Shown: positions 10,298 to 18,515 of the stretch, piece after piece
Layout of the letters: every line of letters starts with the position of its first letter
Position numbering within the stretch: position 1 is the stretch's first letter
Assembly: GCA_014360195.1 (NCBI GenBank)
Contig: JACIXY010000003.1
Coordinates: 83,692-147,691 of the forward strand
DNA: 64,000 nucleotides
Direction: 5' to 3'
Source of the DNA: Bacillota bacterium
GTDB lineage: Bacteria > Bacillota > SHA-98 > UBA4971
Position numbers and translations under genes: made by a program
Notes under the pieces: model-generated
The model's input: only the letters and a program-made list of their open reading frames with translations
What the model was told of the DNA's origin: nothing
Databases searched by the model: none

Positions 10298-10564
10298 ATG
10301 GTGAGCGACTTCGCATTGCGCATTCTCACGCGACAAGAGACGGTCCTGGCAACCCGGGTGACCTCAGTCTTGATTCCAGGCTCCGAAGGGGACTTCCAGG
10401 TCCTCGGCAACCACGCACCAATCGTGTCGGCCCTCCGCCCAGGGAGAATCGTCGCGGCCTGCAACGGGGAGCAGAAAGATGTCGAGGTGACCGGGGGCTT
10501 CGTCGTCGTCACGCCCGACCACGTCGATGTGCTCGTGGACCTCGCCGACCTCACGCCTGGATGA
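10298..10564 (+). CDS. atpC: F1 ATP synthase epsilon subunit, short form lacking the C-terminal helical domain
   Basis: 88-aa beta-sandwich-only epsilon. The stop overlaps the convergent GGDEF gene by 14 bp. Confidence 0.8.
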   Translation: MVSDFALRILTRQETVLATRVTSVLIPGSEGDFQVLGNHAPIVSALRPGRIVAACNGEQKDVEVTGGFVVVTPDHVDVLVDLADLTPG

Positions 10565-12320
10565 CGCGGTTCCGCCCCTCCCTCTTTCCACGGTAACATG
10601 CCATGTCCGCAAGGTATATGAGGTCCTTCTGGGTTCTGGCGTCCGTGGGATACGTGGCAACCCCCACCGTGACGGTGACGCGCCCGCTTGGTATCTGGTC
10701 CTCGTTAGGGAACGGGTATGCCTCTATTCTCGCCCTGATCTTCTCAGCCACCTTGAGCGCGTGCGCCTTCTGCGCCTCCAGGAGTATGACCACGAACTCT
10801 TCCCCGCCATACCTTGCCACAATGTCGGTCGAACGAACGGACCTCGTGAGGAGCCTCGCCACAGCTTTCAGCGCGGCATCGCCTGCCGGATGCCCCAGCA
10901 CGTCGTTATACTGCTTGAAATCGTCGATGTCGATCATCAGCAGAGATAGATAGCGTCCGTAGCGCTCGCACCTCGCCAGCTCCTCCGCAAGTCTCTCCTG
11001 GAAATGCCTGTGGTTGAAAAGCCCTGTGACCGAGTCTGTGATGGCCAGCCTCTCGGCTATCCGATGTAGCCGCGTCACTTCGGCAAGCTGCCTGTCGAGC
11101 TTGGCGTTGACCCGCCTGAGCTCCGCCTCGCTCTTTTCGAGCAACTCGTTCTTCACCTTAAGCTCGCGGTACAGCCTCGCGTTCTCTATGGCGATAGCCG
11201 CCTGCGTGCCGATGGTGCACATGATCCGCACGTGGTCTTCCTCGAAACGCTGGGTGTAGCTCTGTACCGACATCACTCCGATGACCCTGTTCTGCACCGA
11301 AAGCGGCACTGCGATCACCGATAGCGGCTTATCTCCCAGTGTGATGGCCTCAGCAGGCACGTGCTTCATGTCCCTGGCCGAATCCCTTATGAAGAGGGGC
11401 TTGCCCGACTTTATCACCCACTCGGTGAGACCCTTCCCGGTGGGATAGGGCCGTGTGAAACTGGCCACGCGCACGCCATGGTCCACGACCATCTCGAACC
11501 TGATCTCGGAAGCCTGTTCGTCAAAGAGGGCCACGAAGAACGATTCGTTGCCGATGATCGCCGCCACCTGCTCGTACATGACCTCGAGCAGCGCCGGAAA
11601 GTCAAGCACGGAGGTGGTCGCTACCGCCACTTTGTATATGCTCATCATCTCAGCAGCAAACCGGCGGGCCTCCTCGGTCTGGCGGCGCAGCTCCTCCTCA
11701 AGCTGCCTCCTCTGGGTCATGTCGCGCACTACGCCCTGAATCCCCACGGGGGCGCCTTCCTTCCGGATGACGCTCGTGTTGATCTGGCAGTATACGGACT
11801 TGCCACCGCATCCCGCTAGCTCCACGTCGAGCATCTGGCAATCACGGGACATGCTGCCCGGCGAGAGGGCCGCGGCGACCTCATCGTGGCTCGTGTCGGC
11901 CACCACCTCGAAGATCCTCCGGCCTACTAGCTCGTGAGCACCGCACCCGAGCATCGCCGCAAAGGGCTCGTTTACATACGTGATCGTGCCGTCGAGATCG
12001 GCGACGAACATCCCGTCGCTCGCGTTCTCAATGAGCTGCCGGTACTTGGCTTCCGATTCGGAGAGGTCCCTGATGGTGGCCCTCACCTTCCTGCTGAGGG
12101 CCCTGTTGGCCGCAACCGTGGCGACGATGACGAAAAGGAGCGCCCCGAGGACCGTCAGAGCCATGAAGTGAGCCATGGACATCTGCTGCTGACTCGCGAA
12201 AAGCGGGCCTTCGATCGGCAGAGCAAAAGCCATGCCGAAAGCGGAAGCGGAGCAGCCTGCGACCGCCCCCGGGCAGGGAAATGGACGCACCCATCCTGTG
12301 GCTGATCCCGGCATCATCCC
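10551..12320 (-). CDS. Membrane-anchored PAS-GAF-GGDEF diguanylate cyclase
   Basis: GGEEF active site, RYGGEEF, and PAS and GAF segments. ATG at 12320 with RBS GGAGGAGGTG 4 nt upstream. Confidence 0.8.
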   Translation of the reverse strand, partial: GMMPGSATGWVRPFPCPGAVAGCSASAFGMAFALPIEGPLFASQQQMSMAHFMALTVLGALLFVIVATVAANRALSRKVRATIRDLSESEAKYRQLIENASDGMFVADLDGTITYVNEPFAAMLGCGAHELVGRRIFEVVADTSHDEVAAALSPGSMSRDCQMLDVELAGCGGKSVYCQINTSVIRKEGAPVGIQGVVRDMTQRRQLEEELRRQTEEARRFAAEMMSIYKVAVATTSVLDFPALLEVMYEQVAAIIGNESFFVALFDEQASEIRFEMVVDHGVRVASFTRPYPTGKGLTEWVIKSGKPLFIRDSARDMKHVPAEAITLGDKPLSVIAVPLSVQNRVIGVMSVQSYTQRFEEDHVRIMCTIGTQAAIAIENARLYRELKVKNELLEKSEAELRRVNAKLDRQLAEVTRLHRIAERLAITDSVTGLFNHRHFQERLAEELARCERYGRYLSLLMIDIDDFKQYNDVLGHPAGDAALKAVARLLTRSVRSTDIVARYGGEEFVVILLEAQKAHALKVAEKIRARIEAYPFPNEDQIPSGRVTVTVGVATYPTDARTQKDLIYLADMACYRGKREGRNRVIQA

Positions 12321-12375
12321 CACCTCCTCCGTGGCCCTCGAGGCCCGCAAGATCCTTCGAAAGCCGTGCTACCCC

Positions 12376-13425
12376 TTACTTTGCGGGCATCTTGCCGGTC
12401 TGCCTCAGGTAGTCGAAGAAGGACTCCTGGTCAGCGAACACCTTTGTGCAGTGGAATTTCAGGAACGGGCTAACGCGCTCCTTGAAGATCGCGTAAACCT
12501 CCTTGTTGTTCGTAGAGCCGTAGATGATCTCACAGAGCACCCCCGGGGATGTCTTGTCCGTCGGATAGTACACGACCACCATGTCGCTCTGGTCGATCAG
12601 CATATAGTCGCGGATGACCGTCTGGTCGGCTATCTCGCCCCTATCTGACGGCGTGATGGCGAACTCCGGACCTATCTCGGAAAGGTTGTAACTCTTCGAC
12701 TCGTCCTTGCCCACGCCATACGAAAGCTCTGTGTCCTCAACAGCAAGCGGGTCGAAGACCTCAAAGTGCTCCCTCAGCCTGTCCCGAAACTCCCTCACTT
12801 CCTGCATCTTCACGGCGTCGTTGTGCATTAGAGTTATCGGGAAGCTCAAGTATATCTTGGGAACCTCAGGCCTGAACATCAGGTTGTAAACGGTGCTCGC
12901 AGGCTGACCCACCGCCACAACGTAGTGCGGCTTTCGCTGGTAGGATGCCATCATCTTCGTGACGAAGATCTCCTCGTCCCGCCAGATGAGGATGTCCTTT
13001 AGTGACAGCCGTCCCCTCCACACAGGCGATTCATCCAGCCTTTTCGATACGTTGAGGATGCTATCGATAATCGTCACGTAAAGGTCGGGCTTGAGTTCGT
13101 TCAGATAATGCACGTCAAACGCGGGCATGAGGTAATTCTTCCAGCGGAAGCAGCCGTGCGTGGAAATGATGCAGTTCTCGACTTTCTCGGCCTTCTTGAG
13201 AATCTCCTCAAATACCGCCGCCCGAAGCGACCTCAGCGTAGACGGTGAGAGATCCAGAATCTTCTCTGGACTCGTGGGGCTCTCCAACTCATCCGCTTTC
13301 TTGAACATAAGGTCGCCGACGTTGAACAGGTGGACCTTCTTGCCAAGCGCCTCTGAAGTGGCAAGCGCCCCCTTGAGGTACTCGAGCTTTCCTGAGCCGC
13401 TGGTGCCTGTGCATATGACCTTCAC
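12376..13425 (-). CDS. Two-domain protein: N-terminal P-loop kinase-like domain (Walker A GTSGSGK) fused to a C-terminal nucleoside 2-deoxyribosyltransferase/SLOG-like Rossmann domain. Lower GC than its neighbours.
   Basis: VKVICTGTSGSGKLEY at the N-terminus. The C-terminal segment SDMVVVYYPTDKTSPGVLCEIIYGSTNNKEVYAIF resembles the NDT/LOG/SLOG core with a conserved Glu. GTG start at 13425 with RBS AGGAGGGG. GC is about 50-53% against about 65% in the flanks, and the protein is K/I/N/Y/F-rich. Confidence 0.5.
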   Translation of the reverse strand: MKVICTGTSGSGKLEYLKGALATSEALGKKVHLFNVGDLMFKKADELESPTSPEKILDLSPSTLRSLRAAVFEEILKKAEKVENCIISTHGCFRWKNYLMPAFDVHYLNELKPDLYVTIIDSILNVSKRLDESPVWRGRLSLKDILIWRDEEIFVTKMMASYQRKPHYVVAVGQPASTVYNLMFRPEVPKIYLSFPITLMHNDAVKMQEVREFRDRLREHFEVFDPLAVEDTELSYGVGKDESKSYNLSEIGPEFAITPSDRGEIADQTVIRDYMLIDQSDMVVVYYPTDKTSPGVLCEIIYGSTNNKEVYAIFKERVSPFLKFHCTKVFADQESFFDYLRQTGKMPAK

Positions 13426-13481
13426 CCGAACCCCTCCTGACAAGAACGTTCGACACCCGTTGGTAGACTCCTCCTCCACTC

Positions 13482-14828
13482 CTACCCTGCGAACCGCTCC
13501 AGCACCAAAGCCATAAACTTGATGCCTTCCAGGAAATCCGATACGTTGACGTTCTCGTCCGGACCGTGCACACGCGATTCTGGGTTACCGATACCGACGC
13601 CCACGGCGGGCGTGCCGAACTGGGCTGCAACCTGGTACATCGGGCCCGTGCCTGCGGAGGTCGGGTACACCGACGGTTCTTTCCCGAACAGTTCCGCACT
13701 TGCCTCCCTGATCACCTTCACTATCCGCGAGTTTGGGTCTGTTCTTGCAGGATGTTCCGCGCCAAGCCACGTCACGCGGAAGTCGCCGTAACCCTTCACT
13801 TTGAGATAGTCCTCGAACTTCCTCGCTATGTCGTCGGGCCGCTGATCCGGCACCAGGCGCATGTCCAGCTTGGCCATGGCCTTGCTGGGTAAAACGGTCT
13901 TCGAGCCAGGCCCCTCATACCCAGCCGAGAGGCCGCATACGTTGCACGTGGGCTCGAAGTAAAGCCGCTTTAAGACGTCCTTGCCGGCGAGGTCCAGCAC
14001 GAACCGGTCGATGCCGAATAGCTTCGCCAGGCGCTCGGGGCTTGCGGGAAGCTTCTCGATGAGCTCGACGTCCTCCGGGCCAGGCTGGCAGACGTCATCG
14101 TAGAACCCCGGGATAAGGATCTCCTCCTTCTCGTTCTTGAGAGAGTTCAGTGCCCAGAGGAGCCTCCACACGGGGCTAGGCACGACGGCGGCAAGGGAAG
14201 AATGCAGATCGTAGCTGCCTCCTTCCACCTCTATGTGGGCGTAGCAAAGCCCCTTGCAGCCCAGCGTGAGCTCGAGCCTGCCGTCCTCCTCACGACCTCC
14301 CGTCTCCCATATGCACGCGTCGGCACGGAAGGCCTCCGGGTGCTCCTTCGCGTAACGATCAAGGTTGGGACTGCCGATCTCCTCCTCGCCCTCGGCGACG
14401 AACTTCACCGTCACAGGAAGCTTTCCTCTAACCTTGAGAAGCGCCTCGGCTGCCTTCACACGCGCCATGAGATCCCCCTTGTTGTCAGCGGCGCCCCGCG
14501 CGTACAGCTTCCCACCGTCGATCTCAGCGCCAAACGGGTCGTGCCGCCACCTGTCGAGAGGCTCCGGCGGCTGGACGTCGTAATGGTTGTAGAAGAGGAC
14601 AGTCTTCTCCTGGTCGCCCGGTATCTCCGCCGTGACAAGCGGCGCGGCCCCCTCTATGCGGAAGACCTGCACTTTCGCCCCCAGGGACGAAAACATTCGC
14701 TCGACGATATTGGCGGCATCCTCCACCCCCTTGCCCTGGGCGGAGATGCTGGGCTGCCGCAAGAAGGCTTGCAGCTCCTTGACGAACCTAGGTGCGTGCC
14801 GATCCACATAATCGAAGACATCTTTCAT
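13482..14828 (-). CDS. M20 family metallopeptidase (dipeptidase / ArgE-DapE-like)
   Basis: HYDVQPP, GAADNKG and EGEEEIGS motifs. The preferred start MKDVFDYV at 14828 overlaps the upstream gene end by 4 nt. Confidence 0.75.
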   Translation of the reverse strand: MKDVFDYVDRHAPRFVKELQAFLRQPSISAQGKGVEDAANIVERMFSSLGAKVQVFRIEGAAPLVTAEIPGDQEKTVLFYNHYDVQPPEPLDRWRHDPFGAEIDGGKLYARGAADNKGDLMARVKAAEALLKVRGKLPVTVKFVAEGEEEIGSPNLDRYAKEHPEAFRADACIWETGGREEDGRLELTLGCKGLCYAHIEVEGGSYDLHSSLAAVVPSPVWRLLWALNSLKNEKEEILIPGFYDDVCQPGPEDVELIEKLPASPERLAKLFGIDRFVLDLAGKDVLKRLYFEPTCNVCGLSAGYEGPGSKTVLPSKAMAKLDMRLVPDQRPDDIARKFEDYLKVKGYGDFRVTWLGAEHPARTDPNSRIVKVIREASAELFGKEPSVYPTSAGTGPMYQVAAQFGTPAVGVGIGNPESRVHGPDENVNVSDFLEGIKFMALVLERFAG

Positions 14829-16666
14829 CCGAACCTTGAACCCCCTGACATCGAGTGATGCCTGCGCCTCCGCACGCCCCTCGGGGAAACTTCGGCACGG
14901 CGGCGAAGCCACCACGCGCCGACCGAAAGCCCCGTGAGAACCGGCGATGACGCACCGATCACCGTCGTCTGAAGCAAGTCAACGTAATACTTGAACGCCC
15001 TGTGAAAGTCGGGCAGATGCCGGGTGAACCTTGCGCCGTCACCTGCCACAAACATGGCAACCTGGAGGACAAGGGCGAACACGATCAGGTAAACGCAGGT
15101 CAAGCCCGTAAGAAGCGCGTCAAGGGGCCGCCTGCGCGTCTCCCACGCGAGCCACCCCGAGACCGCTACGGCAAGCACCCCGCACAGGGCCGAGTCCGCC
15201 ATCCTCCAGGTGAAGAACGGCGCAACCTCGCTTTCGCTATTGAACATGCTCATGGAGAACGCGATGCCGCGCACGAGCACGAGGCCATAAAACGCGGCAA
15301 AGTAGATGGCCGCTCCAATGACAGGGATTCTCATGTTTCGAGCGCTCCAACCCGCGAGGATCGCAAGCCCCCACGCAAGCCCGCCGAGCACGACAACGGT
15401 GGCAGGTATGCTCACGAGCCTCCGCGCGCCGAGAAACCGCTGGCGCGCGCTGGATATCGCCTTCACCATCCGGCTGTCGATCTCCAGGGCAAGCTCGGTT
15501 GCCTCGGTATACTTGCCGTCATTGTGAAGGAGGGCAGCGCTGGAGACAGGCTCGACGGTCGGAAGCCTCCTTCCGAGCACGCGGAGGTACCCTTCGGCGA
15601 AAGCTCGCCTCGCCGCGGCCTGCCTTATCGCTCTCTCAGAGACCACGTGCGGGGCCGCGTCAATCCCCTCGAAGAGGACCCTGCCCTGCGAGTGCGTGGG
15701 AACAGAGGTGCCGAGGAGCGCCGCGCAGGTGGGGGCCACGTCCACATGGCGGGCGGGCATCCATGAAATCTCCGCCCCAGGGTGCTCAGGCGTGACTATC
15801 CCCGCCCCGGCCGCCACCAGCGGGACCTGGACGACATCCTCCTCCCAGCCTCCGTGCCCGCCTCGTAGCGTGTGCCCGTGATCAGATGTCACGACTATGG
15901 TGTCGCTGGTGAGATCAAGGTTAGCCAGGATCTTCCCAACCCTCGCGTCCACCTCGGCCGATGCGGTCTCATAGGCGGCGCTCGCAGCGCCCGAGGTGTG
16001 CCCGGCAGCGTCCACTGACGAGAAGTGCACAACGAGGAACCGGGCGTCGCCCCGCTCGATCTCCCCGAGAGCGGCACGAAGGACCTCATCGTCGGCCTTC
16101 TTGCTCGCAGCGACATCCTCCGCCGCAACCGCATCGACGTATGTCGCCCGCGCAACGGATGCGCCGAAAAGAACCTTCCAATCCTCGCTCGCGGCGAGGG
16201 CGGTCTTAACCCCGGCGCGTCGCGCCGCATCGAAGAGGCTGTCCACGGGGACCGTGCCCTTGTATCCATTAGTGGTCACCCCCGATATCTCCGGAGGCGC
16301 GCCGGTGAGGAGCGTGGTCCATCCGGGATAGGAGAGTGACGGCTGGTTTACTAGAAGCGAAAACGCAGCGCCACGACTTCCGATGTCTTTCAGCACGGGC
16401 ATCTCATCCACTCCGGTAAATCCGAGCCCGTCAATTATCACGAGAACCAGTCTCCGCGTGACTCGTGCCGTGGCCTCGCCAGGCTCAATCGGGAAAGAAT
16501 ATGGGCTCCGGTAGCTTACCACGTCTTCCAGCCCCGATATGGCAAGGTGCCACGAGATGGCTCCCAGGCTTATCATGACGGCGAAGGCAAGGAGAATCAC
16601 TGTTTCCCTGCTTCCAAGCCCGCGGCCTCGAAGTCGCCTCGCCGTTCTCCCAACCGCACCCGACAT
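14825..16666 (-). CDS. Membrane alkaline-phosphatase-superfamily type I phosphodiesterase / nucleotide pyrophosphatase, with one N-terminal TM helix and a C-terminal polytopic membrane domain
   Basis: VLVIIDGLGFTG...SYPGWTTLLTGA...VVTSDHGH are PF01663-like motifs. About 5 predicted TM helices follow the catalytic core. Confidence 0.65.
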   Translation of the reverse strand: MSGAVGRTARRLRGRGLGSRETVILLAFAVMISLGAISWHLAISGLEDVVSYRSPYSFPIEPGEATARVTRRLVLVIIDGLGFTGVDEMPVLKDIGSRGAAFSLLVNQPSLSYPGWTTLLTGAPPEISGVTTNGYKGTVPVDSLFDAARRAGVKTALAASEDWKVLFGASVARATYVDAVAAEDVAASKKADDEVLRAALGEIERGDARFLVVHFSSVDAAGHTSGAASAAYETASAEVDARVGKILANLDLTSDTIVVTSDHGHTLRGGHGGWEEDVVQVPLVAAGAGIVTPEHPGAEISWMPARHVDVAPTCAALLGTSVPTHSQGRVLFEGIDAAPHVVSERAIRQAAARRAFAEGYLRVLGRRLPTVEPVSSAALLHNDGKYTEATELALEIDSRMVKAISSARQRFLGARRLVSIPATVVVLGGLAWGLAILAGWSARNMRIPVIGAAIYFAAFYGLVLVRGIAFSMSMFNSESEVAPFFTWRMADSALCGVLAVAVSGWLAWETRRRPLDALLTGLTCVYLIVFALVLQVAMFVAGDGARFTRHLPDFHRAFKYYVDLLQTTVIGASSPVLTGLSVGAWWLRRRAEVSPRGVRRRRHHSMSGGSRFG

Positions 16667-16708
16667 ACGATCCCTCTCCTCACAAGAGCGCCAGGCCCCA
16701 TCGTTTCT

Positions 16709-17584
16709 TTATTGGGTTTTCGACACACCTGACCTGTTCCCTCCACCCACGTCCGCGGCAAGCTCGCGCCACCTCCTGTCGAGGTCGTCCACGACGCTAT
16801 CAGGCACAGACACACCTCCAAGCACGGCAGGCTCATCGGGCGCGACGCCGTGGAAGTCACTTCCACCTGTAACGATGAGGCCGTGCCGCCTGGCGACCTC
16901 GACCCACCGCCTGGTGAGTTCAGAATCATGAGCCGGGTAGTATGCCTCGATCCCCTCAAGCCCCGCCTCGATGAGACCCTCGAGGAGAGCCTCTCCCGCC
17001 GTCCTCCCGGGGTGGGCCAGCACGGGCACACCCCTCGCCGCCCGCACCAGGCGGACAGCTTCCGTCGGGGTCAGCCCGTAATGCTCCACGTACGCGAGAC
17101 CCTCTTTCCCCAGGTATTTCTCGAAGTCGCCGTAGCGGCGCTCAGGCCTCGCATACCCCAGGTTCACCATGGCGCGAAAGATCTGGCTTCTTCCCACGAA
17201 ACCCTCCTTCCCAAGGCTTAAAACGTAAGGTAGGGAGATTTTTATTCCAAGCTTACCCAGTTTCTCCAGTATCCTCTTGGCCCTGGCGATCCTTCCCTGC
17301 CGCAGCATGTGAAGAGTCCCCAGGAACGTTGGCGACGACGTGTCAATATGGTAGCCGAGGATATGAACCTCGGCTTCCTCCACGTCGGTCGATAGTTCAA
17401 CGCCGGGTATAACGCGCACCCCCAACTTCACCCCAGCGGGCACCGCCTCCTGCACACCGTCAACGGTATCGTGATCGGTGAGCGCGATGGTCTTGACGTT
17501 CCTGTTGAATGCCAGTCGTACAAGCTCCTTTGGACAATAACGTCCGTCTGACGCCGTCGAGTGAACGTGCAGGTCAACCGCCAC
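16709..17584 (-). CDS. PHP-domain metal-dependent phosphoesterase (TrpH/YciV-like)
   Basis: VAVDLHVHSTASDG...ALTDHDT...GGSDFHG. GTG start at 17584 with RBS GAGGGGGA. The ORF-track start is a TTG further upstream. Confidence 0.7.
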   Translation of the reverse strand: MAVDLHVHSTASDGRYCPKELVRLAFNRNVKTIALTDHDTVDGVQEAVPAGVKLGVRVIPGVELSTDVEEAEVHILGYHIDTSSPTFLGTLHMLRQGRIARAKRILEKLGKLGIKISLPYVLSLGKEGFVGRSQIFRAMVNLGYARPERRYGDFEKYLGKEGLAYVEHYGLTPTEAVRLVRAARGVPVLAHPGRTAGEALLEGLIEAGLEGIEAYYPAHDSELTRRWVEVARRHGLIVTGGSDFHGVAPDEPAVLGGVSVPDSVVDDLDRRWRELAADVGGGNRSGVSKTQ

Positions 17585-17699
17585 CTGGAAATCCCCCTCG
17601 TATCCTCTGCAGGAACACAGGAGCCGCCCTCCTTGCGATCCCCGTACATGCAATTATTGCCCGCAAGTGTCGGTTTATTTCCCATGCCTGTGGACATAC

Positions 17700-18200
17700 T
17701 AGTAGTGCAAAGGTCCTCGTCGGGCCGAGCTAAGACCGCCGTGCGCCTTTTCCTGGGCGCTGCAGGCCCGGAAAGCCTCACGGCGATCGAGCGAAAGGTG
17801 GCACTTTGCCTTGCATCTGCAACGCTTGTGCCGCCCGAGCGAAGGTCAGCGTGCGGCCTCCCAAGGATCCGTCCGGGCCGGAAGGCCTTGCCGGGTTCGA
17901 AAGAAGTCGCCCCTGGCCGAGCCAAGACTCGCACTGGTCCGAAGGTAGTCTGTGTACGGTTGAAAGATCGTGTATGGTCTGCCCAGGATCTCTGCCGGTC
18001 GGTCAAAGGTTGCCTCCGGTTCTGTAATGTACTGCAGCTAGAGGTTGCCCCGGCCGGAAGGTCGTTGCAGCCTCGTTAGGGACTGGACGCAGCCGGCGAG
18101 AAGGTCCGTGAGGACCTTTGCCTTTCTCTTGTCCCTTGTGACTTTGAGATGTGCCGCCCCCAGCCCCTGAGAAGGAAATGGGTTGCCGGAAGGCAACCCG
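17700..18200. repeat. Non-coding array of 10 or more degenerate units of about 40-65 bp centred on CCG(A/G)AAGGT. Candidate structured or protein-titrating RNA, or a DNA-binding-site array.
   Basis: GCGAAAGGTGGC, GCGAAGGTCAGC, CCGGAAGGCCTT, CCGAAGGTAGTC, TCAAAGGTTGCC, CCGGAAGGTCGTT, CGAGAAGGTCCGT, TGAGAAGGAAATG, CCGGAAGGCAACC and others. No credible ORF on either strand. Confidence 0.3.
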
Positions 18201-18236
18201 TGACTCGTCTTGAAAACCCCGATTCTATGATATGGA

Positions 18237-18515
18237 CTATCTCGCGGCAACCTTGTCCTTGAGAGCCTTGCCGGCCCTGAACACCGGCACCCTGGATGCG
18301 GCGATCTTGATGGACGCGCCGGTCCTCGGGTTCCTCCCCGTGCGCGCAGCGCGCTCCCTTACTTCGAAAGTGCCGAATCCGACAAGCTGCACCTTGTCTC
18401 CGGAGGCAAGAGCGCTCTCCACAGCCTCGAGCGTCGCGCCGATGACCTTCTCGACATCTTTGCGCCTGGCGCCCGTCTGCTCGGCAACTTTCGCCACGAG
18501 CTCCGTCTTATTCAA
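18237..18515 (-). CDS. hup: DNA-binding protein HU
   Basis: [32 protein letters not shown]...[24 protein letters not shown] start with RBS GGAAGGAGGG. Confidence 0.9.

Follow-up and report, generated by a model that had tools for sequence, protein, structure and literature searches.

A five-gene minus-strand string with an uncharacterised kinase–NDT-like fusion, and a candidate structured RNA beside it, in a lineage of uncultured Bacillota

We analysed a stretch of 64,000 nucleotides (nt) from a Bacillota bacterium (contig JACIXY010000003.1 of assembly GCA_014360195.1), hereafter the window. Between positions 10551 and 17584, its minus strand carries five open reading frames (ORFs) in a row. 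In the direction of transcription, these are gene 1, a PHP phosphoesterase (16709–17584); gene 2, an AlkP-superfamily membrane protein (14825–16666); gene 3, an M20 carboxypeptidase (13482–14828); gene 4, a fusion protein that we call AKNDT (12376–13425); and gene 5, a PAS-GAF-GGDEF cyclase (10551–12317). An earlier, sequence-only reading of this DNA had taken the five genes for a nucleotide-signal synthesis or turnover module, with a conceivable role in defence. All five ORFs exist where that reading had put them. For the cyclase, the stop-side end at 10551 stands, but the start at 12320 was 3 nt off, the likely start codon being ATG 12317.

The five genes are tightly packed, with junctions of 42, −4, 56 and 58 nt from PHP through AlkP, M20 and AKNDT to the cyclase, in agreement with the gaps of 60 nt or less reported before. 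The negative value is the previously noted 4-nt overlap, in which the M20 start (ATG 14828) and the AlkP stop share ATGA. A Shine-Dalgarno site precedes the likely start of each gene. For PHP, GAGGGGG lies upstream of GTG 17584, and GTG, TTG or ATG codons are aligned at the same place in seven relatives; a longer ORF from TTG 17653 is unlikely, because positions 17585–17653 are weakly conserved and contain indels of lengths not divisible by three. The sites upstream of the AlkP start (ATG 16666) and the AKNDT start (GTG 13425) are GAGGAGAGGG and AGGAGGGG, respectively, and homologues of AKNDT begin at the same MKVxCTG. The cyclase start at ATG 12317 has GGAGGAGG six nt upstream, and GTG 12323 is an alternative start.

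The regions between the genes were also consistent with a single transcript. The three intergenic spacers showed no terminator-like fold (z = +0.78, −0.72 and −0.80 against shuffled sequence), and a consensus scan detected neither a terminator nor a promoter-like site on the minus strand between the five genes. On its upstream side, the transcription unit is delimited by a terminator-like hairpin that follows hup, the gene for HU, on the minus strand at 18180–18199. This hairpin reads GGGTTGCC-TTCC-GGCAACCC and then ATTTCCTTCT; its stem is kept in all seven aligned relatives and its loop varies. At the other end of the unit, the stop ends of the cyclase gene and of the convergent, plus-strand atpC overlap by 14 nt (10551–10564), and the consensus scan placed no terminator-like site between these convergent units.

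Taken together, the spacing, the ribosome-binding sites and the missing internal terminators make co-transcription of the five genes plausible. An alternative is that they are not one operon, in that AKNDT, the cyclase or both have promoters of their own and the close packing is incidental. The 56–58-nt spacers before these two genes could hold a promoter, and the cyclase and M20 genes have been gained or lost independently in relatives. Furthermore, even upstream of PHP the scan found no sigma-70 consensus promoter, and the prediction of promoters therefore carries no information at this locus. However, the AlkP–M20 overlap speaks against separate units, as do the spacers, none of which has a terminator-like structure or a minus-strand promoter-like site, and we consider this alternative unlikely.

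Profile hidden Markov model searches of each product agreed with the domain assignments of the sequence-only reading, and all five assignments were borne out by the combination of Pfam, NCBIfam and PDB sequence searches with AlphaFold models and fold searches. Gene 1 is, by its sequence matches, a cytoplasmic PHP phosphoesterase of the TrpH/YciV (COG0613) family. The protein matches Pfam PHP (PF02811) at 42.8 bits, above the cut-off, has an HVHS metal motif (HxH) near its N terminus and has no predicted transmembrane (TM) segment. It resembles TrpH/YciV and Cv1693 in this motif and in alignments over approximately 250 amino acids (aa) with Cv1693 (PDB 2yb1, E = 7e-33), RNase AM (9etk, E = 1e-30) and a 5'-3' exoribonuclease (7ug9, E = 3.5e-29). 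It differs from them in scoring below every NCBIfam equivalog cut-off: the best model, 3',5'-nucleoside bisphosphate phosphatase, gave 190.8 bits against a cut-off of 400, and RNase RNM gave 154.5 bits against 375. Gene 1 is not assignable to one activity among 3'-phosphoadenosine-5'-phosphate (pAp) phosphatase, 5'-3' nanoRNase and cyclic phosphodiesterase. Characterised relatives in the TrpH/YciV family include a pAp phosphatase and the 5'-3' nano- or diribonuclease RNase AM. Judging from family membership, the enzyme would act in the cytoplasm, removing pAp and/or trimming very short 5'-phosphorylated RNAs, including dinucleotides. RNase AM/YciV, an enzyme of the PHP family, degrades pGpG along with other diribonucleotides (PMC11528712), so a PHP gene near a cyclase is not absurd.

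The product of gene 2 scored 76.7 bits with Pfam Phosphodiest (PF01663; cut-off, 23), 47.6 bits with Sulfatase and 43.2 bits with Metalloenzyme. It consists of an N-terminal signal-anchor helix, an AlkP domain at approximately residues 70–330, a helical linker and, at the C terminus, about five TM helices in a bundle. Hydropathy and charge indicate a TM segment at residues 23–41 after a K/R-rich N terminus, at least four TM segments towards the C terminus and a K/R-rich tail at that end, and an AlphaFold2 model (predicted local distance difference test score (pLDDT), 91) agrees with this anchor–domain–bundle layout. Because the positive-inside rule applies to the K/R-rich N terminus and tail, the catalytic domain is predicted to lie outside the cell, and a domain that faces outward would not act on cytoplasmic second messengers.

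The AlkP core fold of gene 2 is common to NPP-type phosphodiesterases, PbgA/YejM, EptA and LtaS-type proteins. In the envelope enzymes among these (PbgA/YejM, EptA and the LtaS type), the catalytic domain is outside the membrane, as is predicted for gene 2. The order of parts is reversed, however: PbgA, EptA and LtaS have an N-terminal TM bundle first, whereas gene 2 has one anchor, the catalytic domain and then the C-terminal helix bundle. A Foldseek search with the model returned generic superfamily matches only. Xac NPP, the periplasmic domain of PbgA/YejM and choline sulfatase were about equally close, and the best family-level match was no better than E of approximately 1e-9 with a template modelling score of 0.58. 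The family is small, with 69 proteins among 5.8 billion. By inspection, the window protein keeps DGLG, PSLSYPG, VDAAGH and SDHGH, which are putative catalytic residues. The sister lineage (loci L008–L015) has lost the motifs that we read, again by inspection, as the Ser nucleophile and the metal ligands (VDAAGH and SDHGH); this loss affects 7 of the 15 AlkP sequences that we compared. The sister-lineage orthologues (for example, L012:7286–9064), as their sequences suggest, are probably pseudoenzymes that have kept position and architecture; PbgA/YejM has likewise lost its catalytic residues, unlike the AlkP protein of the window. An active enzyme would, from family membership, act on phosphoesters of the envelope or the medium and not on cytoplasmic signals.

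Gene 3 encodes an M20-family metallo-carboxypeptidase or dipeptidase, as assigned from its matches to Pfam Peptidase_M20 (127.8 bits) and M20_dimer (47.2 bits) and to NCBIfam PRK06446 (427.6 bits, above the cut-off of 369). Its full length aligns with the Sulfolobus carboxypeptidase Sso-CP2 (PDB 4mmo, E = 4e-94), and nothing notable sets it apart from Sso-CP2 and the PRK06446 carboxypeptidases. By family membership, it would serve as a carboxypeptidase or dipeptidase. The gene is full-length only in close relatives of the window. In L008–L013 (for example, L013:5627–6493), the product is 288 aa long and has lost the dimerisation (lid) domain through an internal deletion, and the gene is missing from L014 and L015.

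Gene 5 is predicted to encode a membrane-anchored PAS-GAF-GGDEF diguanylate cyclase. Pfam gave 164.6 bits for GGDEF (cut-off, 23.8), 65 for PAS and 59 for GAF_2, and TIGR00254 gave 183.1 bits, above its cut-off of 37.4. The active and inhibitory sites read RSTD-IVARY-GGEEF, that is, a GGEEF motif with an RxxD I-site five residues upstream, and a single TM segment spans residues 52–70. The protein thus has the same GGEEF active site and RxxD site as PleD/WspR-type cyclases and is an ordinary member of that group, anchored by an N-terminal TM segment and equipped with PAS-GAF sensors. Its role, taken from family membership, would be to make cyclic di-GMP (c-di-GMP) on cues sensed by PAS and GAF. 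The gene is absent from L012, L014 and L015. In L008, L010, L011 and L013, its product has 373–419 aa compared with 588 aa in the window, and by inspection the GAF domain is apparently lacking.

Gene 4 encodes the least familiar of the five products. An AlphaFold2 model of AKNDT (pLDDT, 87.6; predicted template modelling score, 0.87) has two domains, of which the N-terminal one has the fold of the archaeal-type adenylate kinase AdkA and the C-terminal one an NDT/DNPH1-like fold. Scores at the sequence level were below the cut-offs for both: 42.2 bits against the AdkA profile PRK04040 (cut-off, 155) and 17.1 bits against PF05014 (cut-off, 28.8). A profile of the C-terminal domain found no sequence-level relative in the PDB, and the link of this domain to NDT structures is structural only, resting on the model. 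AKNDT differs from AdkA and from N-glycosidases of the NDT, DNPH1 (Rcl) and MilB types in joining both domains and in having a non-canonical P-loop.

The window protein, which belongs to the Bacillota clade of the family, has the Walker A sequence GTSGSGKL, with no Ser/Thr after the Lys, as compared with the canonical GxxxxGK[ST]. The family-wide pattern is G-x-S-G-S-G-[R/K]-x, with Arg replacing Lys in most of 120 homologues, and the Mg-binding Ser/Thr of Walker A was present in none of the homologues compared (n = 120). Other motifs are invariant or nearly so: THxCFRWK, PD.Y.T..D and WRDEE in the kinase-like core, and YLSxPxT, xQSD and SPGVxxE in the C-terminal domain. The Glu of SPGVxxE is kept in 110 of the 120 homologues and is a candidate nucleophile by position only. 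We found no description of a fusion of this type in the literature, and we know of no characterised protein with such an architecture. From its two folds, we infer that AKNDT couples a nucleotide-binding, kinase-like domain to an N-glycosidase or transferase domain.

AKNDT belongs to a conserved family. A first protein search returned 206 matches with conservation over the full length. In a representative library of 1.84 billion proteins, the family comprised 347 clusters (at 50% identity) at E ≤ 1e-30 and 969 at E ≤ 1e-10. The named matches are mostly archaeal, and they also include an Anaerolineae clade and a Bacillota clade approximately 50% identical to the rest; the family thus spreads over Thermoproteota, Anaerolineae and the Bacillota lineage of the window. 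Some members differ in domain architecture (P0191, P0192, P0195, P0201 and P0243, of approximately 600 aa; P0263, of 491 aa; and P0301, of 453 aa). Of these variants, some have an extra N-terminal kinase-like (AAA_17) domain; in one, a NUDIX domain follows the kinase-like domain, and another has helix-hairpin-helix domains. Several Thermofilaceae metagenome-assembled genomes (MAGs) hold two AKNDT paralogues on different contigs (L036/L060, L031/L072 and L061/L076).

In loci L018–L035, which represent one Anaerolineae lineage, AKNDT lies between tmk, with a stop/start overlap of 3–4 nt, and a DarA/PstA-like gene of the PII type. A tmk–darA arrangement is known from Firmicutes, and the position of AKNDT inside this arrangement hints at a role in nucleotide metabolism. 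This linkage to tmk and domain variants such as the one with NUDIX suggest that AKNDT belongs to ordinary nucleotide metabolism. Its role would be of a housekeeping type, in which the adenylate-kinase-like domain would bind a nucleotide and either supply or regulate the NDT/DNPH1-like N-glycosidase domain.

To compare gene order, we searched the proteins of the window by tblastn against 80 genome loci that encode AKNDT, 15 from Bacillota MAGs and 65 from archaea and Chloroflexota, and added two metagenome loci obtained by a pattern scan. The order ftsK–rodZ–hup–PHP–AlkP–(M20)–AKNDT–(cyclase) was found in only 15 of the 80 loci, all of them from Bacillota MAGs, and in the two metagenome loci. 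The AKNDT proteins of the 15 loci are 74–99% identical to that of the window, which as a whole is almost identical (99%) to Bacillota MAG contig L002 (JAAYXB010000075.1). In these loci, the ftsK–rodZ–hup flank is as syntenic as the five genes themselves. On the downstream side, the block adjoins the ATP synthase operon in the closest relatives, and this flank is rearranged in others. Since the flanking housekeeping genes are equally syntenic, conservation within the lineage is what common descent predicts.

Outside this lineage, the association disappears. None of the 65 other loci (Thermoproteota, Nitrososphaeria, Brockarchaeota, Anaerolineae and others) had any of the four partner genes within 10 kb of AKNDT. 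The earlier reading had named a lack of co-conservation in other genomes as grounds for giving up the module, and this is what we found in the loci beyond the single Bacillota lineage. The neighbours of AKNDT instead differ by lineage: one Anaerolineae group has tmk and the DarA-like gene, Thermofilaceae have a divergent glutaredoxin-like gene and Brockarchaeota have nagB. Clustering of approximately 1,075 neighbour ORFs from 76 AKNDT loci gave no partner conserved across lineages. Similarly, PHP and the other partners were not found beside distant AlkP homologues (in Armatimonadota and others), which adjoin UPF0182, an FeS-assembly protein, an epimerase or ribosomal genes.

One further gene recurs near AKNDT. 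A MiaB/RimO-like radical-SAM methylthiotransferase lies approximately 1–6 kb away in 13 loci from three phyla (L008, L010, L012–L014, L031, L036, L040, L041, L047, L048, L061 and L074). It sits at no fixed distance and on no fixed strand, paralogous families are pooled in its cluster, and in Bacillota rimO usually lies close to ftsK. We therefore rejected this gene as a partner of AKNDT, its proximity being probably due to chance.

These data lead us to regard the five genes as a probably co-transcribed but functionally mixed string that was inherited as a block, with a clustering that reflects ancestry and operon packing rather than a shared pathway; we hold this reading to be probable, short of confident. 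The block would have been passed down in one lineage of uncultured Bacillota from anaerobic digesters, with ftsK–rodZ–hup on one side and, among the nearest relatives, the ATP synthase operon on the other. Three observations weigh against such a reading. PHP, AlkP and AKNDT are adjacent in every informative Bacillota locus, even though AlkP has diverged to 33–38% identity and the downstream flank is rearranged, and this persistence could reflect selection for co-expression. The cyclase follows AKNDT in 11 of the 14 informative genome loci and in L087. In addition, PHP is homologous to RNase AM, the pGpG-degrading enzyme introduced above. Because the three-gene adjacency has outlasted divergence and rearrangement, we leave a small chance to a functional link specific to this lineage.

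The most explicit form of such a link is a dedicated second-messenger unit, in which the cyclase makes c-di-GMP, PHP clears linear dinucleotides such as pGpG, AKNDT senses or converts a nucleotide and AlkP hydrolyses nucleotide phosphodiesters. The homology of PHP to RNase AM fits this scheme, as do the intact GGEEF motif and I-site of the cyclase and the two nucleotide-binding folds of AKNDT, the kinase-like domain of which is fused to NUDIX elsewhere in the family. The PHP–AlkP–AKNDT adjacency, with the cyclase next in most loci, would also be expected. However, the cluster contains no EAL or HD-GYP enzyme to make pGpG, the AlkP domain is predicted to lie outside the cytoplasm and is probably dead in 7 of the 15 sequences compared, and M20 has no nucleotide role. 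Moreover, both M20 and the cyclase are dispensable within the lineage, and outside it neither AKNDT nor AlkP has any of the other cluster genes close by. We therefore judge a messenger unit unlikely. The module proposed in the sequence-only reading is unsupported on the same facts: its partners are confined to one lineage, its components erode there and its AlkP enzyme would face away from the cytoplasm.

A role in anti-phage defence, which had also been thought conceivable, appears unlikely. Under this alternative, the cluster would act by nucleotide depletion or signalling, with an SLOG/NDT-like effector, phosphoesterases and a cyclase. Some conflict systems do contain NDT/SLOG-like and cyclase domains, and in a scan with PADLOC-DB 2.0 the N terminus of PHP weakly matched PDC-M49A (E = 0.002–0.009). 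That match involves the generic HxH motif only, however, and the other four proteins had no match in PADLOC-DB. Homologues of AKNDT were absent from 50,697 phage and 72,556 plasmid records, and in archaea AKNDT stands alone among housekeeping neighbours. The locus holds the same chromosomal position in all relatives, among ftsK, rodZ, hup and the ATP synthase operon and without mobility genes, unlike variable defence islands. Third-codon-position GC content (GC3) is host-like and uniform over the region. For AKNDT it is 0.774, equal to that of the neighbours, which rules out a recent horizontal island; the lower overall GC of the gene is due to amino-acid composition. With these points against it, we regard a defence function as very improbable.

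The spacer between hup and PHP contains the most conserved element of the region. Within a core at 17640–18125, nucleotide identity to four relatives was 0.905, 0.897, 0.879 and 0.800, the highest of any feature in the region, compared with 0.60–0.76 in the flanking spacer. The core does not code for protein: variable columns are spread over the three codon phases (60, 49 and 48), all six frames contain stops and there are 1-nt indels. The sequence-only reading had seen a GAAGG-repeat non-coding region before the operon. Its non-coding nature holds, but TRF found no tandem repeat in the spacer, and the "GAAGG repeats" are GNRA hairpin loops.

Conservation and covariation point to a candidate structured RNA of approximately 415 nt on the plus strand, at 17707–18121. 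The alignment folded with an energy of −211 kcal/mol on the plus strand compared with −145 kcal/mol on the minus strand (alifold), and the single-sequence z-scores were −4.5 and −1.6, respectively. For nine sequences, the plus-strand consensus comprises 158 pairs, which form 14 helices and are paired in 97.6% of cells, and a long-range helix between 17707–17726 and 18103–18121 closes the structure. Compensatory changes were present in 19 pairs, compared with 6.3 ± 1.8 in shuffled alignments (0 of 500 reached this number) and at most 5 in slid-partner controls, a count drawn from nine closely related sequences and a structure derived from the same alignment. Several hairpins are GNRA-capped, with loops that vary between GGAA and GAAA or between GAAA and GAGA. 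Hairpins on the operon strand were considered as well and rejected; by eye, they were without covariation support in alignment A3, and the opposite strand has it.

Rfam 15 gave no match at the gathering score anywhere in the window, and at 17500–18300 only noise (E = 0.47–8.8). The analysis identified no promoter for the element. So far it is known from the nine sequences, which come from one lineage and always lie between hup and PHP; a pattern scan of metagenomes contributed only two loci, from this lineage and in the same context. The sister lineage L008–L015 lacks the element and has a gap of only approximately 130–210 nt between hup and PHP. Large bacterial non-coding RNAs are rare. On this sequence evidence, the spacer is a candidate for a new large structured RNA without an Rfam family, one that lies on the strand opposite the operon and is not part of it. 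It is also conceivable that the locus is a genuine lineage-specific unit after all, with AKNDT as a new nucleotide-processing enzyme that shares a nucleotide pool with the PHP dinucleotidase and the cyclase, and with the divergently transcribed GNRA-rich RNA functionally tied to the operon. We consider this combination quite unlikely.

Read as a mixed string inherited by descent, the cluster should not go forward as a candidate nucleotide-signal or defence system, and the parts worth following are the AKNDT family and the candidate RNA. The RNA merits attention as the most conserved element of the region and one without an Rfam family. The AKNDT fusion represents a conserved, uncharacterised family and would lend itself to enzymological work on archaeal nucleotide metabolism.

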